64,000 bases of DNA from an uncultured Bacteroidota bacterium (GCA_903944895.1 CAJATL010000052.1:973-64972), one strand, 5' to 3'. Shown: positions 20,684 through 38,180, counted from the stretch's first letter. The notes: generated by a model not told the origin, from the sequence alone. Numbers and translations are program-made.

Positions 20684-23600
20684 ATGAAAGTCAAATACAG
20701 CGTTTCGCTTTTCTTAGTCATAATTCTATCTCTGTCCGGCACTTTTGAGGCATATTCCCAAAACCTGACCGACACAGTTAACATCCCTCAAATAACCATC
20801 GAATCGCTTAACGGCTTTGGGCCTTACACCATCGGCACTTCGCGCGATAATTATTTTATGGCTTACGACTTGCCGACAAATACATCAAGTGTCACTTTCA
20901 GGATGATTGACGAAAATGGCGACCAGATAAACAGTTCCTCAACCACCGGGGGCGACAACCTGGAGTCGGCTTTCTGGGAATTTGAATCCGACACAATGAA
21001 TTTTCCGCTATCGCCGCAGTTAAACGTCGAAGTGCATTATCAAACCGACAGTGTGGCCAATTATTACATTCCATACATTGTTTACTGCGACACTGTATTT
21101 TTTGAAGCTACCAAAGGCTGGGGGCCTTTTATTACGAACAATTACACACGGACCGATACTTCGTGGCATAACGTTGCCCAAATGCCAAATACTTTTAGTG
21201 TAAGAAACCTGCCACCGAGAACCGAAAAGGTAAAATTTACCATTTTTTCGGCAGATTCGGTTGCGATTGATTCATCTTTTACCATGGCGCCAACCGGCCA
21301 ATATCTCGATTCGGCAAAATTTCTTGAAGTCAGGATGGATTTGCTGCCACTAAAAACCAGGTTTATCGAGGCAGCTTCGTTTTGCGCTGGCGGCCCTTCG
21401 GACGGCGTAATTCAAAATAAAGAGCTTATTATCCTTCCTCAAACGCCAAAATTAGTATGCAAAACCGACCTGAACATTTACCACGATTCGATCCCACAAT
21501 TTACACAAAACCAAACCGGTGGCCAGGCAATCCTGGTTGACACCAATAAATACGCTCAGATTCAGAATGGACCCGGTCTGATGCACGAAACCCTCTCGGG
21601 TACAAAATATGCCGGACCATATAGTTTTGATATTATCCAGGGACAATTTACCATTGAAGCCTGGGTACAATACAATGCCAAACTCTCCACACTTCCGCAG
21701 GGCGAAATGAATATAATGTCGGTTGATTCGCTCTGGAAAATTGGCCTGATAAAAGATGGATATGGAAATAACCTCTATTTTTATTCGCTGGCCGGTGGCA
21801 TAGAAAACACCCTGGTAATGGCCGGCTTACCTTCGATAACAAACAATAGCTGGCATCATATGGCCTACACCTTTAAATATATTCAGGATAAAGCGACATT
21901 TTCGGTTCATGTATTTTGGGATGGGAACCTAATCAATCCTTCCCAGGTTTCGGTGGATGTTGAGGAATTCGATTACATTTTTCAGCATATTCCGTATCGC
22001 GATAATATGAAAACCAAACCTCTGATACTTGGTAGTATTCAAAATGATGCGCCATCGGTTCGTATTATTCAGGCTATGGATGAAGTAAGAATCTGGAATT
22101 ATGCCCGAAGCGCCCAGGAAATTAAAAGCAATTTCAAAAAACCTGTTCTTCAGGATTTAAGTCTGACAGGCTATTGGAACTTTGACGACCTCCGGAATCG
22201 CCTGAAAATTGTATCCGACGACAGCTACACCAACAACACCGGGACAATCGAGAATGGCGCCTGCTTTATTCCCGAGGCTATAGATATTCAGGATTTAAAC
22301 GATACGATAATTTTTACATCAAGCAACAAACTCACCGATTCGATCAAATTTAGCTTTTACGATTTTAACAACAATGTGCTTTATTCAAAATTGCTGCATC
22401 CCTCAAGCAGTAAATGCACTTTAGCTTATGATTTATCAACACTTTCGTACAAAGTAAGCCATTTAAAAACGCGTGAGTATTTTCCCGGGGTTGCCGACAG
22501 CGGGTTTGTAACAACCTACAATGTTTCGGTAACGCCGCCAATCCCGATAGCCACGCCCAAATACAACTGGAGTGCTTTTTATCAGAGCGATTATGAATAC
22601 GACGAAATAATCAATTCGATTGATGTGGCGGGCTTACCTTCCGGTTCGTTCAAAATAGTTTGTGGCCTCAAAAGTGGCAATTCGTATTACGATACTCAAA
22701 CGTTTACCCAAAACAGCGTTCCTTACCAATACTCGCTTAACCTCAACGGCGCTGACAATTTTATACAGACGTCCCAAAAAATTTCCTGTCCCACCAGTGG
22801 CGAAATTTCCTTTTATTTCAACACTACTTCTAAAGATGGCGGGGTTTTATTATCATTTAGCCAAACAAAAAACGGTGTCGGCAGCACCCGTACAGAGCGG
22901 TTGTTCCTTTTGGAAAAAGATGGCTCTCTAAGATTTCAGGTCATGTCGGGATACGTTTTGTATGGCGAGCACGCTTACAACGACGGGCTATGGCACAATG
23001 TTACGGGGTCTTTTGGAGGCCTCTCAGCAGAGTTGTACATTGATGGCTCGTTGGTTGACCACAAAGCCATTCCCTATTTATCCGGCTACGATGGCTATTG
23101 GCTGGTTGGCAGGAATCACGCCAACAAATCTGAAGAAATACGGGCACTGGCCGAATATTATAAAGGCTCACTGGCCGAAATTTATTTTTGGCGCTCCGAC
23201 AAAAACCGGAGCGAAACATTGTACCGGCTTGATGACGGACAAGGTGTAACTGTTTTGGATTCGAAAGGGAGCAATCATGGAACTTTGAGCGGTAATTTGC
23301 AAAAATGGGTCAAGGTAAACCGAAACCTTTCGTACATCACCTGGAAAGGAAATATGATAAACAAACCTGCCGGTAATTACACTTTTTTTGTCGAGCTTTT
23401 TTATGAAGGCGGGCCGGCAAACGGGATTTATTATCCTGTTGGGAATTTTATTATCAAAGATCCTCTGCCTGGCTACACCTTTGACTATAATTTTAACCAG
23501 GGTATCGGTTATTTTAATGAAGGCGTTTTTCTTAATAATCTGATCAGTTTTAATACAGATTATACCCTGCAAGGAACAACAAATTGGAAGGAAGACTTCC

Positions 23601-26600
23601 TGCAGGGAGTTTTTCTGTCGCCTTCGCACAATGTTATCAGTAAAAAGATTTTTACCTACACGCAAACAAACCAGTATTTTAACCTGCCTTTTGACATGGG
23701 TGATGCGGCTCCCGGCAGTTATTTCAGCTTCCAGAGTGGCTTTATTACCACCACTGGCGACACATCAGTTCAGCATACTTTTTCGGTGCCGGTTTATATC
23801 AACCAAATGATTGCGCCAACAGTTTCGGGTGATTATGGTCCGTTTTTACAGGCCATTGCCCCCGGTTGCATGGATCAGGAAAATACTTTTACCATCGCTA
23901 CCGAAGAATTGAACGACATGAGCAAAGTGATTGGAAAGTTTTACGATAACACGGGGATTTTGGTGGCCCAACAAAACGCTGTAAAACTTAACGATACTAC
24001 CTGGCACCTGACTTACGACATGGGGAAACTCCCACCACCGCAGGTAAATCTGAAAATTGAATATTATCTCGGGCAAGACCCTGAACCGGCCCTCATCGAA
24101 GGCCCCTATCAGATTATCATACACAAAACCCGCCCACGCTGGTTCGATTTTATGGCTGATACATGTTTTCACAATGTTCAGGAAAGTGGCGATGAGGTAA
24201 CTTTTTCGTTATTAACTTATTTGAGCGAAGAAAACAGAACGGTTAAAACTTCGACATTTAAAGTCCCCAAAGGGGTGCCGATATTAGGCGAAACAAATAT
24301 TACCACAGGCACTCCTACTGTTGAAGCTTATCTGAAATTCACCAAATCGGTAAATAAGCTCGAAATCGACGGACCCCCGGTATTCAGCAAAAGTTTATTT
24401 ATTTTCGAATTTGGACCTCCCGAAATTGTTAATGCTGATTTTCAACTTGATGAAGAAAATTCGTACAATCTGGACGAAAACAACGACCTGTTTGCAACCC
24501 AAAACTTTGCTTCGGCACTCGACATGACCTGGAGCATCAAAAGGCTTGTCGAAAATCCGGTTACAAAAATGATGGAACTCTACAAAGATTTGAAGATGAA
24601 AAACTGGAAGGATGCCAAACCCGTAGGTATGACAGCCAATTTCACAGTAACACCTAATGTTGGCTATGCGTCACGGCTGCATTATTCGGTTGATACCATC
24701 AACGGTGGATGGGGTTCGGTGGGCAACCTTAAAATTGATGCAAATCCCGAACATGAGGAGGCCTACAAAAACAGCGCTTCATACCATTTTGTATATATGG
24801 GCATGGATTGCGAGTTATCGCTTGGTGTAACTTTTGGCGGTGGACTGGTTGATGTTTACGGCGCAGTAGCTCCCGGAATTTATGTTGGCATGGGTTCTTC
24901 ATACATTGATATTCCTAAAAAAGACAAACATTTTATTATTGCAGCCATGTTTCAGACCTATTACAGGGTATATTTAACGGCTTTGTGGAGCTGGTACGAG
25001 GTTAACCTCTTTGGGCCAAATCCAATTTGCCGGTTGAGCATTGGCGCCGATAATATGACCGACTGTTTTCCTCCTTTCGGGAAATCTGCAAATTTACCAA
25101 TCGAAAATTTTAAGGGCGACCTTGCCTTGGGCAAAACTCTAAATCAAATGGCGCCGGTTGGTTGGTATCAGAAAATGCCGCTGCCGTTACCCCAACATTC
25201 GATCAGCATGAAAGATAAACACCGTTTGTTTACCTGGCTTGAGCCTGAAAAATCGTATGGCGAACGAAATCTTTGTTTAAGAACCATAAATCCGGCTACC
25301 GGCAAATTTGGTAAAACACAAGCTGTTTCGACCAATCAAAATGCCATTCAAAAGCCATCGGTTGAGATGATTAACGACAATATCGCCGTCAGCACCTGGA
25401 TGCAAACCCGGCATACCCCCGAAACTTTTATGAATACAAAATCTGATGATGTTATCGAAACTTTAGCCCAATCGCAGGACATCTGGTATTCGGTTTTTGA
25501 TGTTAACACCGGAACAACGCTTTTATCCGGCCCGATCGACGACAATACAAAATCAACAAACTCCGGAAGAGCCGAGGCAAACCCTGAAATCGTTGTACTT
25601 TCCGATAATCGCGCCCTGATTGTGTGGCAGGTTGCCGACTTCGCTCAAAACACTTCAGATATCTGGTATGCTTTTATCGAAAACGAAAACGGGCAATGGG
25701 CCGAAACTACTCCGCAGGTTCTGGCTGAGCCAGGCGGGGTTCAGACCAATTTAAAAGTGGCTTCACCCGCGGAAAATATTGCAGTAATTGTCTGGAAAAA
25801 CTTCGACCAGTCGTCCTGGGAAGGCAACCGGCTGATGACCTCGGTTTTTGCCAGCGAAACCTGGACAAGCCCGACCGAAATACTCGCTGCCGACACACTT
25901 CTTAATTATAATTATTTCGATCTGGATTTTGAAAATGGCCGTGGCGCAATGGTTTACACCACTTATACCAGCGACCAGTCCATCACCGAAAACGAAATTT
26001 TGTCCATCATAAAATGGGATTTCTCTTCAAATAGTTGGGATGTTGCATCCAACCGCCAGCTTTATTCCGAAACCGACGATCATATTCAGGTTCCGCGTTT
26101 GACCATCAGCAAAGATGGGAAAACTGCCGTTGGTTTTAAACTCGAAAACTTAGGTCTGCATACCGCCGATAAAAGGATTTCGCAGGTTGACCTGATGATT
26201 GGCGATATTTCGGATATTGGCGGCCAATGGCAGCATTTTCCGGCTAATCCGCTGGTTTGCGATACCACCAAACAGGTTAACGATTTCGATCTTGCCTTTG
26301 CTGGTGGCGACACTTTGATGATTTTAAGCCACGAGTTTATCATGGCCGCCACCAATGTTCCGTACGAGCCTTTTAATGGGATAACTTTTGGCGATCCGGT
26401 GATGAATCTTGTTTTCAGGGCATTTAAAGTTTCGGAATCAGGCGAAGTTGAAGATGTGAACGAAAACCACTTTTTTGGGCTTACTGAAGTGCCGCATCCT
26501 TACAAAGACGTTGTACTTGAGCAGAATTATCCAAACCCATGTTCGGATTTTACAAATCTCAAGTTTCATTTGCCCGATCAAAATCAGGTGCAGATTGAAA

Positions 26601-26767
26601 TTTTTGACCTGATTGGCTCAAAAATCGGAACCATAGCCGAAGCACAACTCGATCCGGGAAGTTACGAACTGGCGTTGGATACTTCATCGCTGGAATCCGG
26701 GACTTACATCATCCGGCTTACTACCGATCAAGTGGTAAAATCAATAAAAATGATGGTAAAAAAGTAG
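20684..26767 (+). CDS. Giant T9SS cargo protein with LamG-like domains
   Basis: Signal peptide ending in AYS|Q; LamG motifs (FTIEAWV, WHHMAYT, MDEVRIWN; NDGLWHNV); type A CTD (LEQNYPNP...GTYIIRL...KMMVKK). Confidence 0.88.
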   Translation: MKVKYSVSLFLVIILSLSGTFEAYSQNLTDTVNIPQITIESLNGFGPYTIGTSRDNYFMAYDLPTNTSSVTFRMIDENGDQINSSSTTGGDNLESAFWEFESDTMNFPLSPQLNVEVHYQTDSVANYYIPYIVYCDTVFFEATKGWGPFITNNYTRTDTSWHNVAQMPNTFSVRNLPPRTEKVKFTIFSADSVAIDSSFTMAPTGQYLDSAKFLEVRMDLLPLKTRFIEAASFCAGGPSDGVIQNKELIILPQTPKLVCKTDLNIYHDSIPQFTQNQTGGQAILVDTNKYAQIQNGPGLMHETLSGTKYAGPYSFDIIQGQFTIEAWVQYNAKLSTLPQGEMNIMSVDSLWKIGLIKDGYGNNLYFYSLAGGIENTLVMAGLPSITNNSWHHMAYTFKYIQDKATFSVHVFWDGNLINPSQVSVDVEEFDYIFQHIPYRDNMKTKPLILGSIQNDAPSVRIIQAMDEVRIWNYARSAQEIKSNFKKPVLQDLSLTGYWNFDDLRNRLKIVSDDSYTNNTGTIENGACFIPEAIDIQDLNDTIIFTSSNKLTDSIKFSFYDFNNNVLYSKLLHPSSSKCTLAYDLSTLSYKVSHLKTREYFPGVADSGFVTTYNVSVTPPIPIATPKYNWSAFYQSDYEYDEIINSIDVAGLPSGSFKIVCGLKSGNSYYDTQTFTQNSVPYQYSLNLNGADNFIQTSQKISCPTSGEISFYFNTTSKDGGVLLSFSQTKNGVGSTRTERLFLLEKDGSLRFQVMSGYVLYGEHAYNDGLWHNVTGSFGGLSAELYIDGSLVDHKAIPYLSGYDGYWLVGRNHANKSEEIRALAEYYKGSLAEIYFWRSDKNRSETLYRLDDGQGVTVLDSKGSNHGTLSGNLQKWVKVNRNLSYITWKGNMINKPAGNYTFFVELFYEGGPANGIYYPVGNFIIKDPLPGYTFDYNFNQGIGYFNEGVFLNNLISFNTDYTLQGTTNWKEDFLQGVFLSPSHNVISKKIFTYTQTNQYFNLPFDMGDAAPGSYFSFQSGFITTTGDTSVQHTFSVPVYINQMIAPTVSGDYGPFLQAIAPGCMDQENTFTIATEELNDMSKVIGKFYDNTGILVAQQNAVKLNDTTWHLTYDMGKLPPPQVNLKIEYYLGQDPEPALIEGPYQIIIHKTRPRWFDFMADTCFHNVQESGDEVTFSLLTYLSEENRTVKTSTFKVPKGVPILGETNITTGTPTVEAYLKFTKSVNKLEIDGPPVFSKSLFIFEFGPPEIVNADFQLDEENSYNLDENNDLFATQNFASALDMTWSIKRLVENPVTKMMELYKDLKMKNWKDAKPVGMTANFTVTPNVGYASRLHYSVDTINGGWGSVGNLKIDANPEHEEAYKNSASYHFVYMGMDCELSLGVTFGGGLVDVYGAVAPGIYVGMGSSYIDIPKKDKHFIIAAMFQTYYRVYLTALWSWYEVNLFGPNPICRLSIGADNMTDCFPPFGKSANLPIENFKGDLALGKTLNQMAPVGWYQKMPLPLPQHSISMKDKHRLFTWLEPEKSYGERNLCLRTINPATGKFGKTQAVSTNQNAIQKPSVEMINDNIAVSTWMQTRHTPETFMNTKSDDVIETLAQSQDIWYSVFDVNTGTTLLSGPIDDNTKSTNSGRAEANPEIVVLSDNRALIVWQVADFAQNTSDIWYAFIENENGQWAETTPQVLAEPGGVQTNLKVASPAENIAVIVWKNFDQSSWEGNRLMTSVFASETWTSPTEILAADTLLNYNYFDLDFENGRGAMVYTTYTSDQSITENEILSIIKWDFSSNSWDVASNRQLYSETDDHIQVPRLTISKDGKTAVGFKLENLGLHTADKRISQVDLMIGDISDIGGQWQHFPANPLVCDTTKQVNDFDLAFAGGDTLMILSHEFIMAATNVPYEPFNGITFGDPVMNLVFRAFKVSESGEVEDVNENHFFGLTEVPHPYKDVVLEQNYPNPCSDFTNLKFHLPDQNQVQIEIFDLIGSKIGTIAEAQLDPGSYELALDTSSLESGTYIIRLTTDQVVKSIKMMVKK

Positions 26768-26797: not shown

Positions 26798-29700
26798 ATG
26801 AAAAATATTTACACTTTGCCTCTGATATTTCTTTTGGTTTTGGGATTTTTCCCAATAAAAAGCCTGGCCCAAACCAGCAATTTGCCGGGAAAAGCACTTC
26901 AATTCCAGGTAGCCGGCCAATATGTTTCCGGTACCGGGATAAACTCTGCCATCACAGCAATTACACTGGAATGTTGGGTTTATCACAATTCGATGCCCGG
27001 CCAGGTAGAAAGATACCTCACCATTGGCCCGGAGGTAGCCGTGTTGCGCCATGATGGTTCAATTTATGGCGGCCCCGGGCGGTTGCAATTTTATATCAAA
27101 AAAACAAATGGTAGTCTGGTTGGTGTGTGGGCTGATAATGTTCTTTCCGCAGGAGTTTGGATGAACGTTGCCGGAACTTATGACGGGACAAACTTTAAAC
27201 TTTACCTCAACGGGGTTTTGGTTGCAAGTTCTTCGGCTGGCAGTGGATTGTACCCGCCAGATGGAGGTTTTAGTTTTAACAGCCCTGGAAGCGAAAATTT
27301 GGTTGGAAAATTAGATGAATTGCGCGTTTGGAATTATGCCCGCAGCGAGCAACAAATCCGGGAAAACATGCATTTAACCTTGTCAGGAGATGAACCCGGT
27401 TTGCTCAATTACTGGCAGTTAAACGAAGGTTCGGGACCCACGGCACACGATTATACCGGAAATTGCAACGGAACACTTTATAATTTGGGAAACGGAAACT
27501 GGACAAATTCCACAATCCCGTTGGGTGGTGGATTCAGCAATTCGCAAACTGTGAATACCACCGGAAATGTAACTTTTACCGGCACCGGATTTTCATCCGA
27601 TTTTACGGCCTTATCTGCAACCGAAAATATCACGGTTTCACGGATAAATCTATCCCCAAACACCAAACCTTCTGATCCGTTTTATGCCGCCTGTTCGCAA
27701 TATTGGGTTGTAAAAAACTTCGATAACCAGCCTTTTACCGCTGACCTTACATTTAATTTGAACGATGATTTGAACAGTTACAACGGCCTGAATCCGGGAA
27801 GCGTAAGACTTTTTACCCGATCTGAAAATTCCGACGGTGACTGGACTTATGTTGAAAAAGCCGCCATCGTTGACACGGTCGCTAACACGGCTACTTTTAC
27901 CGATCTGAGCACATTTGGCCAGTTTCTGGTTTTGCGGACCTATCCCGAAAATTATGCCGGCAATGCCCTCGAATTTGACGGAGTTGACGATTACACCGAG
28001 CTTTCGGATGCATCGGGATTTCAATACAACGGCTCGTTTACCGTGGAAGCCTGGGTAAAAGCCGAAGTTATGGGAAGCGGGTTTCATTCCATCGCCGCCA
28101 AGGGCACCGAATGGGAATTGAAAATGTATGAAGGAAGTTCGTTTATCATCATCGAATTTGGGGCAAACAACAACGCCATTTTTTCATTTAAAAATCTGAA
28201 CACCAGTTTGGTTGTTGGGAAATGGCTGCACCTGTGCGGCGTGGTGAATCAAACTGCCGGACAAAAACACCTGATACTTTATGTTAACGGCGAGGCCGGC
28301 TCCTCGGTAAACCCGCCAGCTATAACGCCAACAGCCTCATTTATCCGGATAGGGTCGGGATTTAAAGGTAAAATTGATGAGGTACGTATTTGGCGTGAAG
28401 CCCGGACGCAGCAGCAAATCCGCGAAAAGATGCACCTCACCCCAACAGGCGCCGATAAAAACCTGGATGTCTGCCTTCAGTTTAACGAACCTTACGGAAC
28501 CACCGCAAATGATGTGGCGGGAGGAAACAATGGAACACTCACAAATATGAGTATCGGATGCTGGGTTTTATCCGGCGTTCCGGCCGGTGGCGGAGTCAGC
28601 CACACACAAACCGAAACCGGCGGCACTGTCAATTTCACCGGGACTGGTCTTTCGATGTTTTTCAATTCCCACGCCAGCGCATCCATCACCGTTTCGCGGA
28701 TTGATGTAGCCCCAAATATCAACACTTCATTGTTCGATTCGCAATATTGGATCATCAACCGTTTTGGCACCGGCACATTTAACGCAAATCTTACATTTAC
28801 CGTTGCCGAAGATATTACTGCCGATGATCAGGCTTCATCATCCGGAATTAAATTATACACCCGTCCAACCAACGACGACGCCAGTTGGATTTATGCGATT
28901 AATGCAGCTTCGGCGGATGCTTCCGGCAATACTGCCACATTTAACAACCTTACCGGATTTAGCCAGTTAGCCGTTTGCAGAAGACTTCCGGCTGATAATT
29001 TTGCAGGAAATGCTTTGGATTTTCATCCTACAAATGATTACATTTCCGGCACTGGATTAAAAAGTTCGATGATTCAATTCACCCTCGAAGCCTGGGTTTA
29101 TCATAATAATTTAACAACTGACGTACAGCAATATATTACGCTTGGACCGGATGTAGCGGGCATTAAATACAACGGCCAATCATCAGGTGGTGATACCTGG
29201 CTGAATTTTTTCATTAACACGAATAATTATTCCGGTTATGCGGTCACTGCCGTAAATGTACTTTCCACCGGAAACTGGATGCACGTTGCCGGAAGCTACG
29301 ATGGCGCCACAATGAATCTTTATCTTAATGGTGAATTGGTAAAAACCATGGCGGCTTCGGAAAGGATAGACACGCTTGATGGTACTTTTATAATTAGCGG
29401 CACCGAAGCAATGGATGGGAAACTGGATGAAATCCGCATCTGGAATTATGCCCGCGATATTGCTGATATCCGGGCCGATATGTATCGCACATTAGCAGGA
29501 ACCGAAACGGGTCTGGTTTCTTACTGGCAGTTTAACGAGGGCAGCGGAATTGAGCCTAAAGATATTGTAGGTGGAAATAGTGGTACTTTTTATAATATGG
29601 ATGCCTCCAACTGGACTATTTCAACAATTCCGACACCTTACCAGAGCATCGCCGGGGGCAACTGGAGCAGCTCCTCAACCTGGGATGCCGGGCAGGGTGC

Positions 29701-31177
29701 GCCGGTTAAAAATTGGTCGAGGGTTCAGATTGAAAATGATGTTGTTTTAGATGCCGGTAAAACCATGATTGATCTAACTGTTGATGCAGCGGCAAGCCTG
29801 GTTGTTGCTTCATCGACGCAACTCACAGTTACCGGAAATTTGCTGAATAATGCCGGCACCGGCGGTTTGGTGCTCCAATCGGATGCCACCGGAACAGCAT
29901 CTCTTCTCCACGTTACAGCAAATGTAAATGCGACCATACAAAGGTATATTACCGGTAATCCGTCCCTTACCGCCAATACTTATCATCTTGTTTCGGTTCC
30001 GCTTACGCCAGCCACCAATTCGACTTCAAACCTTTTTTTGGGAGCGTACCTTTACGATTTTGACGTGGCCGGTAATTCCTGGCATAGTCTGGGAACATCA
30101 ACCACCACGGTACTCGACGAAACCAAAGGTTACATGATTTACGCACCAGAAAATAACCATACGTACACTTTTGCTGGACCTATGAATGTCGGGACTTTCG
30201 ATCCGTTGGTAGTTTTTACAGGCGCAGGAAATAATCTGGTTCCAAACCCTTACCCAAGCGCCATTGATTGGGATGCCGGTGGCTGGACAAAAACCGGAAT
30301 CGCCAACTCGGTTTATTTGTGGCCTTCGGGAGGTACCGGATATGTAACTTATGTTGACGGCGTGGTAATTCCCGAAGGTACGACCAATCCAAACATAATT
30401 CCTGCAGGCCAGTCGTTTATTGTAAAAGCCGTCAGCAGCCCTACATTCCGAATGACTGACGCGGTAAGGGTTCATAGTGGCAAGCCTTTCCTGAAATCCG
30501 GTGAAAACACTACCGACCTGCTCAGGATAAAAGCCACTGCAAACGAAATGACCGACGAGGCTGTCATCCGCTTTAAAGATGCAGCCACTCCTTTCGCCGA
30601 CCCAGATTATGATGCCTGGAAACTTTATGGCACCGATGGCGCACCACAACTTTACACCTTGTCCGGCAACGGTGAAATGCTGGCCATCAACAGCCTGCCT
30701 TACCCGGAAACAATTTATACAGTTCCGCTTAATTTTGAGATGAATGCGGAGGCAACAGTTACTTTCACTTTTGAAAACATCAGCAGTTTTGAACCATCGC
30801 TCGGTATTTTTCTTAAAGATGAACTCACTGGCCAAACCGTCAATCTCCGAAATAATCCTGCTTATACTTTTATTCACAAAACGGAAAATTCGCCAGATCG
30901 GTTTAAACTGGTTTTCGGTGGCATCATCGGAATTAACGAACCAACGTCAGATGCCGGAAAAATGTGGATTACAGGAAACACGCTTTTTATCAACACCACC
31001 GAAATGGCCGGACAGCAAGCTGTGATTGAAGTTTACAACTCCTCCGGCCAAAAGCTGCTGGCAAAAACGCTGGTTTTGGATGAAATCACAACTTTGGAGT
31101 TGAGTTTAAAAGGATTTGTGATTGTGAAACTTACTTCGGGACAAAAGGTAATAACAACAAAAGGGATTTTAAACTAA
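26798..31177 (+). CDS. T9SS cargo protein with three LamG domains and a conserved C-terminal module
   Basis: Three ALxF...TxExWV...LYxNG...DExRIW units; NPYPSAIDW module; CTD-like end (VYNSSGQKL...VIVKL...TTKGILN). Confidence 0.87.
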   Translation: MKNIYTLPLIFLLVLGFFPIKSLAQTSNLPGKALQFQVAGQYVSGTGINSAITAITLECWVYHNSMPGQVERYLTIGPEVAVLRHDGSIYGGPGRLQFYIKKTNGSLVGVWADNVLSAGVWMNVAGTYDGTNFKLYLNGVLVASSSAGSGLYPPDGGFSFNSPGSENLVGKLDELRVWNYARSEQQIRENMHLTLSGDEPGLLNYWQLNEGSGPTAHDYTGNCNGTLYNLGNGNWTNSTIPLGGGFSNSQTVNTTGNVTFTGTGFSSDFTALSATENITVSRINLSPNTKPSDPFYAACSQYWVVKNFDNQPFTADLTFNLNDDLNSYNGLNPGSVRLFTRSENSDGDWTYVEKAAIVDTVANTATFTDLSTFGQFLVLRTYPENYAGNALEFDGVDDYTELSDASGFQYNGSFTVEAWVKAEVMGSGFHSIAAKGTEWELKMYEGSSFIIIEFGANNNAIFSFKNLNTSLVVGKWLHLCGVVNQTAGQKHLILYVNGEAGSSVNPPAITPTASFIRIGSGFKGKIDEVRIWREARTQQQIREKMHLTPTGADKNLDVCLQFNEPYGTTANDVAGGNNGTLTNMSIGCWVLSGVPAGGGVSHTQTETGGTVNFTGTGLSMFFNSHASASITVSRIDVAPNINTSLFDSQYWIINRFGTGTFNANLTFTVAEDITADDQASSSGIKLYTRPTNDDASWIYAINAASADASGNTATFNNLTGFSQLAVCRRLPADNFAGNALDFHPTNDYISGTGLKSSMIQFTLEAWVYHNNLTTDVQQYITLGPDVAGIKYNGQSSGGDTWLNFFINTNNYSGYAVTAVNVLSTGNWMHVAGSYDGATMNLYLNGELVKTMAASERIDTLDGTFIISGTEAMDGKLDEIRIWNYARDIADIRADMYRTLAGTETGLVSYWQFNEGSGIEPKDIVGGNSGTFYNMDASNWTISTIPTPYQSIAGGNWSSSSTWDAGQGAPVKNWSRVQIENDVVLDAGKTMIDLTVDAAASLVVASSTQLTVTGNLLNNAGTGGLVLQSDATGTASLLHVTANVNATIQRYITGNPSLTANTYHLVSVPLTPATNSTSNLFLGAYLYDFDVAGNSWHSLGTSTTTVLDETKGYMIYAPENNHTYTFAGPMNVGTFDPLVVFTGAGNNLVPNPYPSAIDWDAGGWTKTGIANSVYLWPSGGTGYVTYVDGVVIPEGTTNPNIIPAGQSFIVKAVSSPTFRMTDAVRVHSGKPFLKSGENTTDLLRIKATANEMTDEAVIRFKDAATPFADPDYDAWKLYGTDGAPQLYTLSGNGEMLAINSLPYPETIYTVPLNFEMNAEATVTFTFENISSFEPSLGIFLKDELTGQTVNLRNNPAYTFIHKTENSPDRFKLVFGGIIGINEPTSDAGKMWITGNTLFINTTEMAGQQAVIEVYNSSGQKLLAKTLVLDEITTLELSLKGFVIVKLTSGQKVITTKGILN

Positions 31178-31179
31178 GA

Positions 31180-31348
31180 CCCCATCCCCGGCCCTTCCCC
31201 ATCCCGATAGCTATCGGGAGGGGAAGGGAGCGAAAGTTCGTGGGATTTGGTCGGTTAATTTGAATCGAAGAATTTTTCACAAAACAAACCCAAATCCCAG
31301 GAGCGTTCCCTCCCCCTCTCTTTTTGGAGAGGGGGCCGGGGGGTGAGG
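31180..31348. repeat. G/C-rich hairpin repeat with an inner perfect palindrome
   Basis: cccttcccc..tcccgatagctatcggga..ggggaaggg and ccccctctc..gagagggggccggggggtgagg. Confidence 0.75.
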
Positions 31349-31378
31349 CAGAAAAAATAAACAGACACCATTCAAACG

Positions 31379-31597
31379 ATGAAGAAAATTTTAATGCTTT
31401 CGATTGTACTGACGATTTCGGGGTTTTCACTTTTGGCTCAAGCACCACCAAATCCTCCCGGTGATGCAGGTGGTAGCGGCGGCCCTGTGGGAGGCGGCGG
31501 CGCACCCATCGGCAGCGGGATAGTTTTGCTAATCACGCTGGCAGCGGGTTATGGCGGGAAGAAGGTTTTTGATGCAAGGAAGAAACTTGCCGAATAG
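31379..31597 (+). CDS. Micro-protein: signal peptide, Pro/Gly linker, PID-CTERM-like sorting tail
   Basis: MKKILM...LLA|QAPPNPPG...GGGGAPIGSG-IVLLITLAAGYGG-KKVFDARKK; paralog at 35879. Confidence 0.8.
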   Translation: MKKILMLSIVLTISGFSLLAQAPPNPPGDAGGSGGPVGGGGAPIGSGIVLLITLAAGYGGKKVFDARKKLAE

Positions 31598-31651
31598 ACG
31601 TTTTTGCCAGGCTATGAAATTCGTTTGTATTCCGAGTTATTACCAGGTCAA

Positions 31652-31676
31652 TGGGCGGCATTACAAATGCCGCCCA
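31652..31676. terminator. Hairpin between convergent genes
   Basis: tgggcggcatt-aca-aatgccgccca; no clear T run. Confidence 0.5.
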
Positions 31677-31725
31677 GCCGGGGGCCGGCGCAGCACCTGA
31701 CAGCGTCAATAAAAGCGTACCATTT

Positions 31726-32106
31726 TCACCCCTTTCTCACCTCCACATTCTTAAGCTTCCTGGTAATATCCTTGTCAGCTCTGAACTGCATCTTTACCTT
31801 TTTTACACTGCGGAAGTTTACATCTTCTTCGTTTTCGTAAGAATCGCTGCCAAACGAAAGCGAAAATATCCCCAAAGGAGGCAGGTGAACCGTGTAATTC
31901 TCGGCAAGCAGGTTAGGTACTATTTCGGCAAGACTGTTCAGCGCCGACAACGCATCGCCGCTGCTCAGGCTCGAGCGTTCGGCAATCATCCGGGCAATCA
32001 TTCTAACATCGGCTTTTTGCCGTTTGCACGGAAAAGCAATGTACCTTGTTTTCTTTTCAGGATTCAGTCCGCCTTTTACAGGCGTAATTTTATAAAGTAC
32101 AGGCAT
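31726..32106 (-). CDS. HU/IHF-like DNA-binding protein (Bacteroidota HU-HIG type)
   Basis: IA..IAERSSLSSGD...L..LAE.....L.....VHL..LG.F.LSF...V....VKKVKMQFRADK. Confidence 0.85.
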   Translation of the reverse strand: MPVLYKITPVKGGLNPEKKTRYIAFPCKRQKADVRMIARMIAERSSLSSGDALSALNSLAEIVPNLLAENYTVHLPPLGIFSLSFGSDSYENEEDVNFRSVKKVKMQFRADKDITRKLKNVEVRKG

Positions 32107-32190
32107 AAGTTTATGTTTTTATTGTTAAAGCACTACAATTGTCATTACCTGTTAACCCATTCGTATGGAGAAACCAGTAATTACTACTTG

Positions 32191-32286
32191 CAAAGTTAGC
32201 TATTTAATATATAGTAAACTAATGTTTAATTTATAGTAAAAATAATTTAAACATATAGTAAAATAGATTTTACCTTAAGGTAAAAT
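32191..32286 (-). promoter_or_regulatory. -7 promoter box with four 22-bp-phased repeats and a 20-bp palindrome
   Basis: Minus-strand TAACTTTG (32191-32198); TATAGTAAA at 32210, 32232, 32254 and TAAGGTAAA at 32276; ATTTTACCTTAAGGTAAAAT (32267-32286) is a perfect palindrome. Confidence 0.6.
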
Positions 32287-32506
32287 TACAACATTACTTG
32301 AGAGATTCGCCCAACTATAAAGTCGAAAAACCTGGAAGGTTTAAACGTTGACAGCGTCAAAATAAATTGAACAGTAAATGCCGCCCAGCCCGAGGCAAAG
32401 CCGGGAATTTTATTTACCACAATTAGTGTTGGTAAGTAAAAGAATTACATACATTTGTTAACTATTTTTATGAAATGAACAGTTACTACATTTAAAAACT
32501 CTAACA

Positions 32507-35500
32507 ATGAAAAAGATTCTAGCAATTACATCAACGAAGCGAACCAGAATAATCAGCATCGCTGTGCTTTTTGTTTTAATGTCGGGTAGCGGGCTTTTTG
32601 CTGCCAACCAGGTAGTTACAACCAACAGCGATGCCGGTGCCGGTTCGCTTCGCCAGGCCATTGCCGATGTGAGCGATGGCGGAACCATCACCTTCAATCT
32701 CTCTGCCGGGAATGAAACCATTGTTATTCTGACCGAACTGCTGATTACCGGCAAAGGCGTTACCATCGACGGCTCCAATTCATGGGGAAGTCCCAATCAG
32801 GTTACCGTACAGGTTACAACACCGGGAACTTCTCCCTACCGCGTATTTCATGAAATTGCAGATGGAAAAACCTCCTACATCAGCAATATGACTATTAAAG
32901 GAGGATACATTACGGGATCGGGCGGTTACGGTGGTGGAATCTACCTCGAACAAGGAACCTTAAACCTCTCTCATGTAACAGTTTCCGATGCGCAGGCATA
33001 TCAAGGCGGGGGCATTGCAATGGTTGCGCCGACAAGCTGCACCTTTGACTGGGTTACCGTCAGCAACTGTACGGGCACACTGGGTGGAGGGCTTTATTGT
33101 GGATCCGATAATAATCTTACCCTAAATAACTGCCTGTTCACAGGAAATACCACCAGCGACCCGGTTCCTTCAAAATCGCCCAAATCATCCGGTGCTTACG
33201 GAGGCGGAATTTGCAATATAGGAACCATGACAATTAATCAATGTGAAATCAGTGAAAATGTCGGTGCCGGCGCTTACTCGGTATATGGTATTGGTATCGC
33301 AAACCTGGGTGCAATAACGATTTCCGGTTCTGTGATTAAAAATAATAGTTATTCAGGTGACAAGGGTGCTATCGGGGGAGGTATTGTTGTTTACTCTGAG
33401 GATGCCAACGTGACATGCATCATCGAAAATTCTACGATTAGCGGGAATAGTATAAATTCAACAACTAGTGCAGGAGTAATGGGTGCAGGCATTGGTTTTT
33501 TTAATGTAGATGTTACCGGGGCTATCATTAATTGTACTGTTTCGGAAAATACTGCAACGGCGCCCTCCATGGCATTAGGGGGAGGCGTTTGTGTCTTGTT
33601 GGCCTCTGTCGCCATCTCAAACAGTACCATCGCAAATAATGTTGCCTCGGAGGCCGGAGCAGGCATTTGCCAGGTTGCCGGAACCCTGTCGATAAAAAAC
33701 ACCATTATAGCCCAAAATTCAGATAACTCCACAAAGTTCGATTATAATGCCTATACCGCTTACGGACCTTGGACGCTGAACGACAATGGCAACAACATCG
33801 TGCAATACCAGAATGTGTCTGCTGATGCAGGAAACAGCTTCAACGCCACCACTGATTTTTTGTATAACACCAAATACAACGCTTCAGGAACAGCCTTTAC
33901 CAATTGGACCAAAGGAGGCGATGCCAACGGCGGAAGCCTGAACCTTGCCTACGCTGTGGCTTCCAATGGCGGCCCTACGCAAACGCTGGCCATCACCCCC
34001 GGCAGTATTGCCATCCATTCAGGCGCATGGGATGATGCCGTTACCAAGGATCAGCGTGGCACGAACCGGCACGAGGGGACACCAGCCATCGGAGCCTTTG
34101 AACTCCGACCGGCGCCGGGCTACTTTTATTCAATTGATCCTCCTCCAACCTGGGACTATGAAGGTAACTGGGAAGATGGAATTGTGCCGGGCGCCACGGA
34201 TAATGTGTCAATATCGCCGAATGCTGCTTTTAATCCAAGGATTTACACCAATGTCGTTTGCAACGATCTGAACATTCCAGCCGGCATGAATGTTACTGTG
34301 TATCCCGGCTACAGCCTCACAGTGAATGGAACCTTGCAAAACAACGCCGGAATTTACGGGGTTAGAATTTACAGCACTGCATCAGGAACAGGCTCGTTGA
34401 TCCACCATACCGCCAATGTGCAGGGTTTTGTAGCACGGTACCTCCCGGGAGCATCCCAATCCTGGCATTTTCTATCTTCGCCGGTGGCAGCGCAGGCCAT
34501 CAGTCCTGATTTCGTGCAAGATCCCCCGACCGATTACGATTTCTTTACCTGGTACGAGGCAGGAGACACCTGGGTAAATTTTAAAAATACAACTATAGCC
34601 CCGACCTGGGAAACGGCAAACTATGACAATAACTTTGCAGCCGGCAAAGGTTACCTTGTTGAATATACCGGTACCGACCTTATCAAAACATTCTCCGGCA
34701 ACCTGAATAGCGGACCGATAGCTTTCAACCTTTCAAGAACAGGAACAGGCGCTTATGCAAGATATAATCTGGCAGGAAATCCCTATCCGTCGGCCATTGA
34801 CTGGAAAGCTGCCAGCGGCTGGGACAGAACAAATCTGGAACTGAATGGTGGTGGTTACGACATGAGCATCTGGAATGATGCCTTAAGCACCGGCAATTAT
34901 GGCACTTTTAACAGCGCATCACTCAGCGGAACCGGAACAAACGGTGTGTCGCAATATATACAGGTTGGCCAGGGCTTTATGGTAAAAGCAATAGCGCCGG
35001 GAAAAGCTCCATTGTTACTTGGCATCCAAATGGATGATAGAGTAAGAGTACACAATACGCAGGCTTATCTCAAATCAACCGATGAAGTTGCCAACGTACT
35101 TCGCATGAAAGTTTCGGGGAATGTTAATTCTTATTCCGATGAAATTGTCATTGAATTTGGCCATCCAACCGCCGATGGCGGTGCCGAAAAGATGTTCAGC
35201 TTTTATGAAACCGCGCCCAGTCTTTATACCGTGAAGCCAGATGGAAATTATTCCATTGATTTCCGTGGAGAACCCGGTGCCGTTACCATCCCGCTTAGTT
35301 TTAAAGCAGGTGCTGATGGTGATTATACGCTTACGGCCAGCCAGCTCGAATCGTTTGCATCATCCACCGATATTATGTTGGAAGATGTAAAACTGAATAC
35401 CACACAAAACCTCATGCAAAACCCGGTTTACACCTTTTCCTCAACCAAAACCGACGATGGCGCACGTTTCCTGCTGCATTTTGGAGGCGCTTTCAGCATC

Positions 35501-35749
35501 AACGAAAATGCAAACGAACAACCGATTAATGTTTATGCTTCGGGAAATACGGTTTACATTTCCAATACATCAGGAAGTGAGATGAAAGGTGAAGTGTTTA
35601 TTTTCAATACCATCGGTCAAACCCTCATGTACAAAAAACTCAGCGGTGAAAACCAGACCAGCATAAGCCTTCATTCCAATACCGGTTACTACCTTGTAAA
35701 AGTTGTAACCAACGATAATACTTATTCTACAAAAGTTTTTGTAAAATAA
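32507..35749 (+). CDS. T9SS cargo protein: beta-helix repeats, choice-of-anchor-Q-like domain, conserved C-terminal module
   Basis: DAGAGSLRQAI start, GGGI/NxTISGN repeats, NGGPTQT.A...GS.AI..G...DQRG...IGAFE, GNPYPSAIDW, CTD ending KVFVK. Confidence 0.88.
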   Translation: MKKILAITSTKRTRIISIAVLFVLMSGSGLFAANQVVTTNSDAGAGSLRQAIADVSDGGTITFNLSAGNETIVILTELLITGKGVTIDGSNSWGSPNQVTVQVTTPGTSPYRVFHEIADGKTSYISNMTIKGGYITGSGGYGGGIYLEQGTLNLSHVTVSDAQAYQGGGIAMVAPTSCTFDWVTVSNCTGTLGGGLYCGSDNNLTLNNCLFTGNTTSDPVPSKSPKSSGAYGGGICNIGTMTINQCEISENVGAGAYSVYGIGIANLGAITISGSVIKNNSYSGDKGAIGGGIVVYSEDANVTCIIENSTISGNSINSTTSAGVMGAGIGFFNVDVTGAIINCTVSENTATAPSMALGGGVCVLLASVAISNSTIANNVASEAGAGICQVAGTLSIKNTIIAQNSDNSTKFDYNAYTAYGPWTLNDNGNNIVQYQNVSADAGNSFNATTDFLYNTKYNASGTAFTNWTKGGDANGGSLNLAYAVASNGGPTQTLAITPGSIAIHSGAWDDAVTKDQRGTNRHEGTPAIGAFELRPAPGYFYSIDPPPTWDYEGNWEDGIVPGATDNVSISPNAAFNPRIYTNVVCNDLNIPAGMNVTVYPGYSLTVNGTLQNNAGIYGVRIYSTASGTGSLIHHTANVQGFVARYLPGASQSWHFLSSPVAAQAISPDFVQDPPTDYDFFTWYEAGDTWVNFKNTTIAPTWETANYDNNFAAGKGYLVEYTGTDLIKTFSGNLNSGPIAFNLSRTGTGAYARYNLAGNPYPSAIDWKAASGWDRTNLELNGGGYDMSIWNDALSTGNYGTFNSASLSGTGTNGVSQYIQVGQGFMVKAIAPGKAPLLLGIQMDDRVRVHNTQAYLKSTDEVANVLRMKVSGNVNSYSDEIVIEFGHPTADGGAEKMFSFYETAPSLYTVKPDGNYSIDFRGEPGAVTIPLSFKAGADGDYTLTASQLESFASSTDIMLEDVKLNTTQNLMQNPVYTFSSTKTDDGARFLLHFGGAFSINENANEQPINVYASGNTVYISNTSGSEMKGEVFIFNTIGQTLMYKKLSGENQTSISLHSNTGYYLVKVVTNDNTYSTKVFVK

Positions 35750-35751
35750 AA

Positions 35752-35826
35752 CCCGCCCCACCCCCAACCCCTCCCCCAAAAAGGGAGGGGCGCAAGTTCC
35801 TTCTTTGTGGAGGGGTTGGGTAGGGA
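35752..35826. repeat. G/C-rich hairpin repeat related to 31180-31348
   Basis: cccacccccaacccctcccccaaaagggagggg...ggaggggttgggtaggg. Confidence 0.65.
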
Positions 35827-35878
35827 AATTAAAATCAACAAAATTTTGAAATTCAGAAATCATTAAATATTCAGAAAT

Positions 35879-36118
35879 ATGAAAAATGTACTTAAAAAAC
35901 AGATGTTTGCCTTGATTTTACTCGGTTTCATGGCCATTATCCAAATCAGCCAGGCACAGGCGCCACCTCCACCACCAGGCACTAAAGGTGGCGAAACCAA
36001 CGGTGTTCCCGGTGGCGGCGGCGCACCCATTGGCAGCGGGATAGTTTTGTTAATCACGCTGGCGGCAGGATATGGCGGGAAGAAGGTTTTTGATGCAAGG
36101 AAAAGGCTGGCGGTGTAG
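35879..36118 (+). CDS. Micro-protein: signal peptide, Pro/Gly linker, PID-CTERM-like sorting tail (paralog of 31379)
   Basis: ...SQA|QAPPPPPG...GGGGAPIGSGIVLLITLAAGYGGKKVFDARKR. Confidence 0.8.
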   Translation: MKNVLKKQMFALILLGFMAIIQISQAQAPPPPPGTKGGETNGVPGGGGAPIGSGIVLLITLAAGYGGKKVFDARKRLAV

Positions 36119-36422: not shown

Positions 36423-38180
36423 ATGAACGCAAAAATGTTAACCTTTCTCTTCCTTCTGCAAGGAGCGATGCTTCCGGCAAATGGCACTTCTCCACAAAAA
36501 CCTGAGGACAGATCAGAAAAAACCGGGCCGGAAATCTCAAACTTGACCTACGATAACATCACAACAACCAGTGTTACCGTGTATTGGAAAACAGACTTAC
36601 CGGCTGATTCGAAGATACGCTGGATGGCTCCGGATTCCAATTATCAGGCGCTCATTTTTATCGATTCGTTGTATATTTCTGCTTTGGTAACAAATCATGC
36701 AATTCCGGTCAGCAATCTCCAGCCGGCAACGATTTACAAATACCAGGTTATTTCGCAAAATGCAGATGCCGCTGCGGTGGATTCGGGTTATTTTGTTACC
36801 CAATCGGCCTCATCGGGGAAAGTGAATGTTTATTTTAACCATACTGTTGATATTTCGGTGAGCACAGGAGAACATGCAAACGGGAGCCAGAATTTTGAAA
36901 ATCTTTTTATTAGCCGGATTGACAGCGCAAAATACAGTATTGACATCACTTTGTGGGGATTTTCGTATTATACTTCAATTACAAACGCATTGATCAACGC
37001 AAAAAATCGCGGCGTTAAAATCAGGTTTGTTTATAATCACACGGCCTTTACGCCCTGGATAGATTCGCTGATTGCCCACGAAATTCCGGTCATAAAAAGA
37101 GAGTTTGATACCATCTTTTCGATGCATAATAAATTCCTGATTTTTGATTACCGGTACAACGACAACCCCAAAACCAAATATTTGTGGACCGGCTCCACAA
37201 ACGTTTCCCATCCTCAGTTTCACTCCGACAAAAACAACATTATTGTCATTCAGGACGAAGCGCTTTGTGCCGTTTATACCAGGGAATTTGAGGAGATGTG
37301 GGGTTCGCACACCGACCTGCCTGATCCGTCAAAGGCAAGGTTTGGAACCCAAAAAACCGATAATGTTCCACACATTCTTAATGTCGCAGGCACCAGGATG
37401 GAGGTCTATTTTTCGCCTTCCGACAGCGTTTCAGCTTTTTTAAGCAATCTTATCCTGACCAAAACTACCGAAAGCCTGTTTTTTTGCATGTTGAAATTTG
37501 AGCTACCTGAAATCGAAAATGCTTTGCATACGATATTTATTGATGAGATAAAAATCAAAGGTGTGTTCGACCTGTCCAATATTTTTCTGCCAAACAGCGC
37601 TTATCCCCGGATGAAAGGAATGGCTGTGCCAAATGCCTGGAATCCTCATGCCGACGTATTTCCTGATACCTTGTCGGGATTAATTCACCATAAATATTTC
37701 ATCACTGATGCAAATTCATCAGGAGGGAATAAAATTACTGCCACAGGTTCGTTTAATTGGGAAACCCCCGCCAACATTGGAAACGACGAAAATTCGCTCA
37801 TCATTTTCGATGCAAGAGTAAATAATCTTTATTACCAGGAATTTCATAGCCGCTATCGCGAATCAGGTGGAGAATTAATCGGGCTGGGCATCGGAAATCC
37901 AGACATAGAAATAAATTCTGGTTTTTCGTTAAGTCAAAATTATCCGAACCCGTTTAATGCCTCGACAAACATAAAATTTACCATTGCCAATTCGGGCGAC
38001 GTAAAAATTATAGTGTATGATATGATAGGGCGCCAGGTTAAAACGCTGGCAAACGAAAAATTAAAACCTGGCACTTACGAAATATCTTTCGATGGCTCTT
38101 CGCTGCCGAACGGAATTTATTTGTACCGGTTTTCTGTTGCCGATTTTACCCAAACCAGACGAATGATCCTCGATAAATAG
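36423..38180 (+). CDS. T9SS-secreted phospholipase D-superfamily protein with N-terminal FN3-like domain
   Basis: Two HKD motifs (MHNKFLIFD, IHHKYFITD), WTGSTN / TGSFNW, CTD LSQNYPNPFN...GIYLYR. Confidence 0.88.
   Translation: MNAKMLTFLFLLQGAMLPANGTSPQKPEDRSEKTGPEISNLTYDNITTTSVTVYWKTDLPADSKIRWMAPDSNYQALIFIDSLYISALVTNHAIPVSNLQPATIYKYQVISQNADAAAVDSGYFVTQSASSGKVNVYFNHTVDISVSTGEHANGSQNFENLFISRIDSAKYSIDITLWGFSYYTSITNALINAKNRGVKIRFVYNHTAFTPWIDSLIAHEIPVIKREFDTIFSMHNKFLIFDYRYNDNPKTKYLWTGSTNVSHPQFHSDKNNIIVIQDEALCAVYTREFEEMWGSHTDLPDPSKARFGTQKTDNVPHILNVAGTRMEVYFSPSDSVSAFLSNLILTKTTESLFFCMLKFELPEIENALHTIFIDEIKIKGVFDLSNIFLPNSAYPRMKGMAVPNAWNPHADVFPDTLSGLIHHKYFITDANSSGGNKITATGSFNWETPANIGNDENSLIIFDARVNNLYYQEFHSRYRESGGELIGLGIGNPDIEINSGFSLSQNYPNPFNASTNIKFTIANSGDVKIIVYDMIGRQVKTLANEKLKPGTYEISFDGSSLPNGIYLYRFSVADFTQTRRMILDK

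Follow-up and report, generated by a model that had tools for sequence, protein, structure and literature searches.

A stretch of 64,000 nucleotides from an uncultured Bacteroidota bacterium (GCA_903944895.1, CAJATL010000052.1:973-64972), referred to below as the window, carries between positions 26,798 and 36,118 two successive gene pairs, each composed of a large type IX secretion system (T9SS) cargo protein and a downstream micro-protein of 72 or 79 residues. The reading preferred here, at a probability of roughly 0.6, is that each pair co-encodes a Pro/Gly-rich peptide processed by an exosortase and a surface-display cargo of the RemA type. This reading draws on the selection acting on the micro-protein sorting signal, on the position of the micro-protein genes behind genes of one cargo class, and on their co-occurrence with exosortases.

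The source genome of the window comprises 7.17 Mb in 424 contigs. It was compared with a relative set of 40 Lentimicrobiaceae/Bacteroidales genomes (22 of the same family and 18 of other families of the order) and with a phylum sample of 301 Bacteroidota genomes; with the source genome left out of the exosortase and module counts, the latter divides into 69 genomes positive and 231 genomes negative for the PID-CTERM type of sorting signal.

Architecture of the two units

All genes of the two units lie on the plus strand. Cargo 1 (1459 amino acids (aa), 26798..31177) consists of a signal peptide, three Laminin_G_3 (LamG) stretches (220.5 bits over the 3 stretches), a RemA-type module at aa 965-1384 (29690..30949; E-value 4e-158 with a hidden Markov model (HMM) of the module built from 18 paralogs) and a T9SS type A C-terminal domain (CTD) at aa 1395-1457 (30980..31168; TIGR04183, 23.4 bits with a curated cut-off of 23). 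It is followed by micro-protein 1 (72 aa, 31379..31597). Cargo 2 (1080 aa, 32507..35749) consists of a signal peptide, a Gly-rich repeat region holding a choice-of-anchor Q domain (choice_anch_Q, 47.2 bits), the module at aa 560-1004 (34184..35518; module HMM, E 4e-141) and a type A CTD at aa 1015-1080 (35549..35746; TIGR04183, 27.3 bits), and is followed by micro-protein 2 (79 aa, 35879..36118). In both proteins the CTD stands at the extreme C-terminus and exceeds the TIGR04183 cut-off, as is characteristic of T9SS type A cargo; on the Pfam model PF18962, the CTD of cargo 2 reaches 19.2 bits, under the cut-off of 27. In an AlphaFold2 (AF2) model, this CTD superposes on those of RemA and RemZ with Foldseek TM(target) scores of 0.84 and 0.83. 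Metatranscriptome contigs of RNA run X20, in which DNA carry-over is possible, match cargo gene 2 exactly at 33893-34120 and 34189-34396.

The N-terminal parts of the two cargos are unrelated, whereas their C-terminal ~500 aa align with 164/503 identical residues (33%, E 3e-51), and NPYPSAIDW and the other motifs listed by a first-pass annotation of the window fall inside this aligned region of both. Its description of two units of cargo and small open reading frame (ORF), sharing a C-terminal module and followed by G/C hairpins, was accurate in position as well as in content. Each cargo is thus built of a variable N-terminal binding or enzymatic passenger, an all-beta module of ~430 aa of the RemA/RemZ type and a type A CTD.

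Micro-proteins under purifying selection

Micro-protein 1 begins with a predicted signal peptide at aa 1-20 (..SLLA|QAPP), which is followed by a Pro/Gly linker, the motif A-P-I-G, a hydrophobic stretch of 15 residues, KK and a short basic tail. Micro-protein 2 has the same order, with a predicted signal peptide at aa 1-26 (..ISQA|QAPPPPP), a linker, A-P-I-G, a hydrophobic stretch and a KK tail. The 31-aa tails of the two (31490..31582 and 36011..36103) are identical, while 7/93 nucleotides differ between their coding sequences, all 7 synonymously, in agreement with the first-pass annotation; the part covering the motif, the transmembrane helix and KK shows 5 synonymous and 0 non-synonymous changes.

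Using a profile built from nine paralogs, 16 intact micro-ORFs and one fragment were detected in the source genome. All copies follow one layout: the signal peptide closes with ..A|Q (or A|D), PPxPP comes next, a linker rich in Gly and Asn leads to GGGAPIG, and a hydrophobic stretch of 15 residues that finishes with G-Y-G is followed by KK and a short tail of basic character. Among the 10 closest paralogs, the stretch of motif, helix and KK has a proportion of synonymous differences (pS) of 0.56 and of non-synonymous differences (pN) of 0.10, giving a pN/pS of 0.18, compared with 0.63 for the signal peptide and 0.50 for the linker, so that purifying selection at the protein level is focused on the sorting-signal part. 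Judged by this selection on codons, the micro-ORFs are real, translated, multi-copy genes. In public protein data, 244 homologues of the micro-protein were found at E <= 0.001, and the 120 best listed bear solely the name 'hypothetical protein'. Within the relative set, the micro-protein is present in 22/22 genomes of the same family and in 2/18 genomes of other families of the order.

In a tree of the modules, that of cargo 2 (contig C52) is sister to a module on contig C411, and the micro-protein subtypes of these two contigs differ (GSG..KKV on C52, GEG..YKF on C411), with the two window tails being identical. Micro-ORFs and modules therefore do not share a single common history, and neighbouring units may have undergone gene conversion in the past.

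Membership of the PID-CTERM family

The first-pass annotation had likened the tail to (exo)sortase-type signals such as PEP-CTERM and PID-CTERM and called for its comparison with the PID-CTERM models. NF046080 (PID_CTERM) is indeed the best NCBIfam match of both window micro-ORFs, at 19.5 bits for micro-protein 1 and 19.1 bits for micro-protein 2; the assignment to this family therefore stands, whereas the curated cut-off of 26 bits is not reached by either. Three paralogs in the same genome exceed it (C329, 30.2 bits; C413, 28.9 bits; C250, 27.8 bits). Where canonical members read A-P-I-D, with the signature Pro-Ile-Asp, the two window ORFs and most copies from Lentimicrobiaceae read A-P-I-G; the spacing is the same, with 15 residues separating PIG or PID from KK. 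Alignment with canonical members gives shared columns at A-Q (the signal-peptide cut), P-P, A-P-I, G, Y and KK. Typical canonical members have 66-71 aa and the form M..AQP-(Pro-rich, ~10 aa)-APIDGGLSLLAAAGGAYAIKKLRDKK. A related Atlas cluster bears PF28310 PID_CTERM, the same family being included in Pfam 38.1; in a Pfam-A scan, no model matched the micro-proteins or the module.

A PID_CTERM match over the cut-off occurs in 68 of the 301 Bacteroidota genomes. All of the 150 matches listed (a further 144 were counted) lie in open frames of 31-168 aa, which shows that PID-CTERM in the sampled genomes is a micro-protein family rather than the tail of large proteins; what had been remarked of the window copies, that they carry no passenger domain, thus extends to the family. 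On the alignment evidence, the window micro-ORFs are divergent PID-CTERM members, a 'P-I-G' variant with a longer Gly-rich linker. They share with the PID-CTERM (NF046080/PF28310) and XrtX (NF046081) system the A|Q signal-peptide end, the Pro-rich linker, A-P-I-x-G, the spacing to KK, the occurrence as multi-copy micro-proteins and a small exosortase that always co-occurs in the sampled genomes. They differ from it in having Gly for the signature Asp and a longer Gly-rich linker (GGGG before A-P-I-G), and the window copies and both exosortases of the source genome score under the curated cut-offs. Thus, the kinds of sorting signal and exosortase are already known as curated families, and what the window adds is a P-I-G variant below threshold, accompanied by XrtX-like exosortases that are likewise sub-threshold.

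The RemA-type module

Profile A3, made from 31 module+CTD sequences, was compared with PDB chain sequences. It matched Flavobacterium johnsoniae RemA at 899-1434 (E 2e-67, profile positions 2-502), RemZ at 579-1112 (E 3e-64) and Porphyromonas gingivalis Mfa5 at 657-1026 (E 4e-22, profile positions 2-314), with the GNPYPSAI motif included in the alignments. By this profile similarity, the shared ~430-aa module is the C-terminal region of RemA, RemZ and Mfa5 (PDB 8gl6_D, 8gl8_D and 6to1_A, respectively), to which the window cargos are homologous over the module and the CTD, and from which they differ in their own N-terminal passengers (LamG repeats and choice-of-anchor Q). Among Pfam and NCBIfam models, none covers the module in either cargo. 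The AF2 model of cargo 2 (aa 556-1080) is all-beta, with a mean predicted local distance difference test (pLDDT) score of 86.7; a Foldseek search with it returned T9SS CTDs and generic Ig/FN3-like stacks only, and nothing informative for the module. According to PMC10994853, only the CTD is resolved in the RemA and RemZ structures.

In public proteins, the module is preceded by S8 peptidase, endonuclease I, beta-helix, PKD, LTD, FG-GAP or fn3 passengers. This diversity argues that it is a general display or stalk module and not part of one adhesin. As to gliding, GldJ was looked for, and the source genome encodes it (462.5 bits, over the cut-off). The first-pass annotation had tied the module to the partnership; this was too narrow, since the module is the RemA/RemZ/Mfa5 region and turns up in genomes and genes that lack the partner as well. 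A conserved module Lys (K301 in alignment A3) was considered as a sortase-type nucleophile specific to the partnership and was rejected, because RemA and RemZ keep it too, while no partner accompanies the RemA-like genes examined in XrtF genomes.

Linkage of micro-protein and module genes

Three of the 16 micro-ORFs in the source genome stand at contig starts, and the other 13/13 stand directly behind a module gene. Conversely, among 20 module ORFs, 13 have the partner, 4 do not, and 3 (C193, C130, C401) are cut by or too near a contig end. A scan of the genome for CTDs gave 433 candidates, of which 150 were scored and all exceeded the cut-off; with at least 150 CTD matches and 13/13 micro-ORFs behind module genes, the partner is specific to the module class of cargo, and the pairing in this genome is far beyond chance. 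Within the window, the other four CTD genes listed on the contig have neither the module nor a small ORF, as the first-pass annotation had maintained.

From other Lentimicrobiaceae/Bacteroidales genomes, 80 loci holding 97 micro-ORFs were retrieved. A module gene lies at most 700 nt upstream of 67/97 micro-ORFs, with a median gap of 48 nt; 15 of the remainder have too little upstream sequence to be assessed and 15 are exceptions, so that 67/82 assessable micro-ORFs are paired. The spacer between cargo and micro-protein genes is about 10-80 nt in most other genomes. In genomes of other classes with canonical PID signals, 12/15 assessable micro-ORFs stand behind a module gene, and a further such sample gives 11/17 (23/32 for both samples), from which the pair, as recognised from its sequences, is shown to be conserved across Bacteroidota classes. 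Micro-ORF and module match counts in 23 Lentimicrobiaceae genomes have a Spearman correlation of 0.80. In the phylum sample, with five candidates scored per genome at E <= 1e-20, the module occurs in 62/69 PID-positive versus 31/231 PID-negative genomes. The link between micro-protein and module is therefore strong and obligatory in neither direction.

The proposal that the partner is enriched behind the module is thus upheld in the source genome, in its relatives and in distant classes. The outcomes that had been named as contrary to it, namely missing enrichment, untranslated ORFs or a single recent duplication, do not hold, given the pN/pS of the sorting-signal part and the retention of the pair across classes. 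In the searched literature, whose scope leaves family-model descriptions and supplements aside, no report was found of the pairing of the micro-protein with RemA-type cargo, of the passenger-less nature of PID-CTERM or of its presence in XrtF genomes, nor any mention of 'PID-CTERM'.

Tandem micro-ORFs without a nearby module gene were observed at L075:7780-8222, L090:2475-2919 and L085:526-988, and at two of these loci a conserved protein of ~210 aa, ending in ..KWET.YWGEIPADFGRK, comes after them.

Exosortases and their co-occurrence

As had been noted from the sequence, the window contains no exosortase; the source genome encodes two small ones elsewhere (C335 and C147). They score 64.7 and 51.6 bits on the exosortase/archaeosortase signature TIGR04178 (cut-off 23), and both show the motifs ..SCSG.. 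and ..N(L/I)(F/L)R.., whose conserved Cys and Arg we take to be catalytic. Their best family is XrtX (92.7 and 75.5 bits), followed by XrtF (58.6 and 37.2 bits). Within the relative set, a homologue of the C335-type exosortase occurs in 24/24 micro-positive genomes, with weaker matches in 4/16 micro-negative ones. Counted by hand in the phylum sample as XrtX-model matches at E <= 1e-10, an exosortase occurs in 69/69 PID-positive versus 29/231 PID-negative genomes, so that the co-occurrence of peptide and exosortase expected from the first-pass annotation is complete in both sets. By a similar hand count, XrtX/XrtF-like exosortases occur in 79/93 module-positive versus 19/207 module-negative genomes. 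The association of the micro-protein with the exosortase is tighter than that with the module. A micro-protein gene lies ~40-320 nt from an exosortase gene in five genomes of three families (G194, G147, G294, G123 and G290; the copy in G194 is also seen as L167).

The C147 exosortase lies in a polysaccharide locus (L147:1724-8458) with genes for a DegT aminotransferase, a DUF218 protein, a polyprenyl glycosylphosphotransferase, a polysaccharide deacetylase with DUF3473 (best match, XrtA-system deacetylase) and a FemAB-family GNAT protein (best match, the PEP-CTERM-associated TIGR03019). The combination of genes brings to mind the Wbp/Vim linking-sugar pathway of the T9SS, of which VimA and VimE belong to the exosortase-associated FemAB and deacetylase families, according to PMC7468200. 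The location of one exosortase inside a locus of the exopolysaccharide (EPS) type suggests a glycan acceptor.

At the C335-type exosortase loci of six Lentimicrobiaceae genomes (L102-L107), a conserved flanking protein of 302 aa is complete in 4/6, truncated in the fifth and missing from the sixth. A hydrophobic segment at the N-terminus and a long charged region characterise this protein, for which neither Pfam nor NCBIfam gave a match. No gene of the type of the XrtX-associated membrane protein (NF046082) was seen beside the exosortases of the source genome, one of which is flanked by the 302-aa protein; the latter may take the place of the XrtF/XrtX-associated membrane protein in this lineage.

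Genomes with XrtF

Two genomes (G095 and G202) with a bona fide XrtF and its associated membrane protein carry one PID_CTERM-positive micro-protein each, beside ribE/pdxA. In a Flavobacterium-like XrtF genus (XrtF of G087, 220.6 bits), an ORF of 69-82 aa occupies the ribE-adjacent place in 4/5 genomes (L155:1232-1465 in G052, L156:1202-1450 in G091, L157:1209-1454 in G062 and L158:2126-2335 in G087). This ORF encodes a signal peptide and a Pro-rich linker, then P-I-D, a helix and a tail rich in Lys, and at <=12 bits it is missed by NF046080. A conserved ORF beside ribE/pdxA was also found at further loci of XrtF genomes (L142-L144 and L146), and across these genomes the single ORF spans 60-82 aa. 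By its sequence features, the ribE-adjacent micro-protein is a candidate XrtF substrate. In a 2024 study (PMC10936215), the substrates of XrtF are stated to be unknown, xrtF is essential for surface colonisation, and deletions of xrtF and Fjoh_1449 in F. johnsoniae give the same phenotype profile as deletions of porU and porZ. The XrtF system of Flavobacteriia (TIGR04128 with TIGR04127; Fjoh_1448/1449) thus resembles that of the source genome in having a small exosortase of the same clade, one PID-type micro-protein and RemA-like module genes, and differs in that the micro-protein is single-copy beside ribE and not behind adhesin genes.

A possible mechanism

The following steps are modelled on exosortase, archaeosortase and rhombosortase systems (in part described in PMC7468200). 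Sec would export the micro-protein and signal peptidase I would cleave it ahead of Gln, which would probably then be cyclised, and its C-terminal helix would hold it in the inner membrane with the KK tail on the cytoplasmic side. The XrtX-like exosortase would cut at or near the A-P-I-G/D motif, and a Pro/Gly-rich peptide of ~25 residues would be passed to an acceptor, plausibly a glycan or glycolipid precursor supplied by the EPS or Wbp/Vim-like locus in which one of the two exosortase genes stands. In the most speculative step, the processed peptide would serve the co-encoded RemA-type cargo at the envelope by retention, docking or anchoring. Archaeosortase A with PGF-CTERM provides the model for such a signal: the substrate is cut at the motif and its new C-terminus is moved onto a lipid or lipid-linked moiety. 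In Bacteroidota, an N-terminal Gln left by signal-peptide cleavage is expected to be cyclised (the Q-rule). The N-terminus of the peptide was also considered as an amine acceptor for the PorU sortase and was disfavoured, since Gln or Asp occupies the predicted +1 position in nearly all copies and cyclisation of a Gln at +1 would make such a role unlikely.

A wider and more exact version of this scheme, built on the same analogies, is doubtful: PID-CTERM micro-proteins would in general be the substrates of XrtX and XrtF, and a pyroGlu Pro-rich peptide of 15-25 residues, carried on a lipid-linked aminoacyl-sugar glycan of the Wbp/Vim kind, would be the envelope anchor or docking partner of RemA-module cargo. 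If this were true, the exosortase and T9SS/PorU sorting routes would meet in a single device for surface display, which would explain why xrtF mutants share the phenotype profile of porU and porZ mutants.

Relation to known systems

PEP-CTERM and XrtA (EpsH) of EPS-producing Gram-negative bacteria have the same tripartite C-terminal signal of motif, helix and basic cluster, and in the source genome, too, one exosortase belongs to an EPS-type locus, which includes genes for a deacetylase, a FemAB-like protein and a sugar transferase. However, PEP-CTERM mostly ends true passenger proteins, whereas here the motif is another one and there is no passenger, and the Bacteroidota phylum additionally uses the T9SS. 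Rhombosortase with GlyGly-CTERM (PMC7468200) and archaeosortase A with PGF-CTERM follow the same signal logic of cleavage and transfer to a lipid-linked moiety, with other enzymes, other motifs and substrates that have passenger domains. A separate precedent exists among T9SS cargo with type B CTDs such as SprB, for which a cognate PorP/SprF-like partner is encoded next door. SprB-SprF thus provides a case of a cargo class with a dedicated gene immediately downstream, although the SprF-like partner is an outer-membrane beta-barrel and not a 70-aa exosortase-type peptide, and the CTD of the window cargos is of type A.

No substrate has been published for the Bacteroidota exosortases XrtF and XrtX, for which the micro-protein is a concrete candidate. 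By joining a passenger-less micro-protein of the exosortase type to a RemA-module cargo, the pair is a candidate link between two sorting systems, and it bears on the question of what retains RemA-type adhesins, and further cargo sharing the module, at the surface. It also bears on annotation, PID-CTERM genes being easily missed or called hypothetical.

Weighing the explanations

Several observations count against the reading of the micro-protein as an exosortase-processed peptide that is tied to the cargo. Both window copies fall short of the cut-off for PID_CTERM, and where the signature has Asp they have Gly; both exosortases of the source genome lie far below the XrtX cut-off of 170 bits, and neither exosortase gene adjoins a micro-protein gene in that genome. 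Of the 17 assessable module genes there, the 4 without a partner (C62, two on C325, and C28) do not form one clade, so no module subtype explains the loss. Of the exceptions in other genomes, the 13 inspected comprise micro-ORFs in tandem with no module gene, one that lies upstream of such a gene, and two behind module-less CTD cargo. No module match was found among the five candidates scored per genome in 7/69 PID-positive genomes, and in four genomes that have the module (G023, G027, G031 and G040), searches for the micro-protein and for an exosortase found neither. In five XrtF genomes, 13/13 RemA-like genes at 12 loci have no small partner downstream. The PID-positive genomes are related, belonging to 10 families, so that the co-occurrence counts overstate independence. 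Finally, the metatranscriptome contigs gave no expression evidence for the micro-ORFs; over micro-ORF 1, the sole contig of run X20 was 81 nt long, differed at 8 positions and probably stems from a paralog, and because DNA carry-over is possible, such contigs are evidence neither for nor against expression.

Some of these points would suit a rather unlikely alternative, in which the micro-protein stays uncut as a stable single-pass protein of the inner membrane and acts as a periplasmic holdase, tether or checkpoint for the cargo before T9SS export, its likeness to PID-CTERM being a shared simple architecture. The sub-threshold scores, the G instead of D and the lack of an adjacent exosortase gene in the source genome are consistent with such a protein, and the short gaps (median 48 nt) suit a partner acting in cis. 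However, it does not account for the complete co-occurrence with exosortases (24/24 and 69/69) or for the adjoining genes in five other genomes, and the strongest constraint falls on motif, helix and KK, that is, on the sorting signal, and less on the linker, whose ~25 Pro/Gly-rich residues would offer a poor chaperone surface. It is improbable, too, that the micro-protein, though cut by an exosortase, has an independent function, for instance as a peptide associated with the surface or with EPS, and that its position reflects co-regulation or co-duplication of a cassette, with neither physical nor functional contact with the cargo. In XrtF genomes, the only copy does stand at a housekeeping locus, next to ribE and apart from the RemA-like genes, and PID-positive genomes without a module match (7/69) as well as solitary and tandem micro-ORFs occur; against this, the gene order is kept across classes at saturated synonymous divergence, the partner is found behind the module gene and not behind the remaining cargo genes, which number at least 130, and the copy numbers of micro-protein and module track each other.

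There is scarcely any room for the view that a repeated 3' cassette gave rise to the small ORFs as non-coding by-products, or that the pair is one recent duplication. The identity of the two tails within 4.5 kb and the G/C hairpin repeats nearby would be expected from it, but it is already contradicted by the synonymous nature of all 7 tail differences, by the pN/pS of 0.18, by the divergence of the two modules, which are just 33% identical and belong to different paralog clades, and by the wide homologues, with 244 similar small proteins and the family in 22/22 genomes of the same family.

Spacers and neighbouring genes

The two units are flanked by other T9SS cargo genes on the plus strand, a LamG protein of 2027 aa (20684-26767) and a PLD-like enzyme (36423-38180), each with a CTD and without the module or partner. 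Between the units lies a gene on the minus strand for a DNA-binding protein of the HU-HIG family (PF18291; 31726-32106).

An inverted-repeat scan found G/C-rich inverted repeats without a T-tail at 31193-31228 and 31226-31314, in the 201-nt spacer of unit 1, and at 35763-35820, in the 129-nt spacer of unit 2. Intrinsic terminators were considered for these hairpins and rejected because the T-tail is missing; a promoter and terminator scan, whose coverage does not extend to Bacteroidota promoters, flagged no terminator there. A similar G/C element stands behind a further module gene, where a contig of the source genome ends (G000, C130, ~22380-22600), and this recurrence suggests a dispersed repeat resembling repetitive extragenic palindromic (REP) elements.

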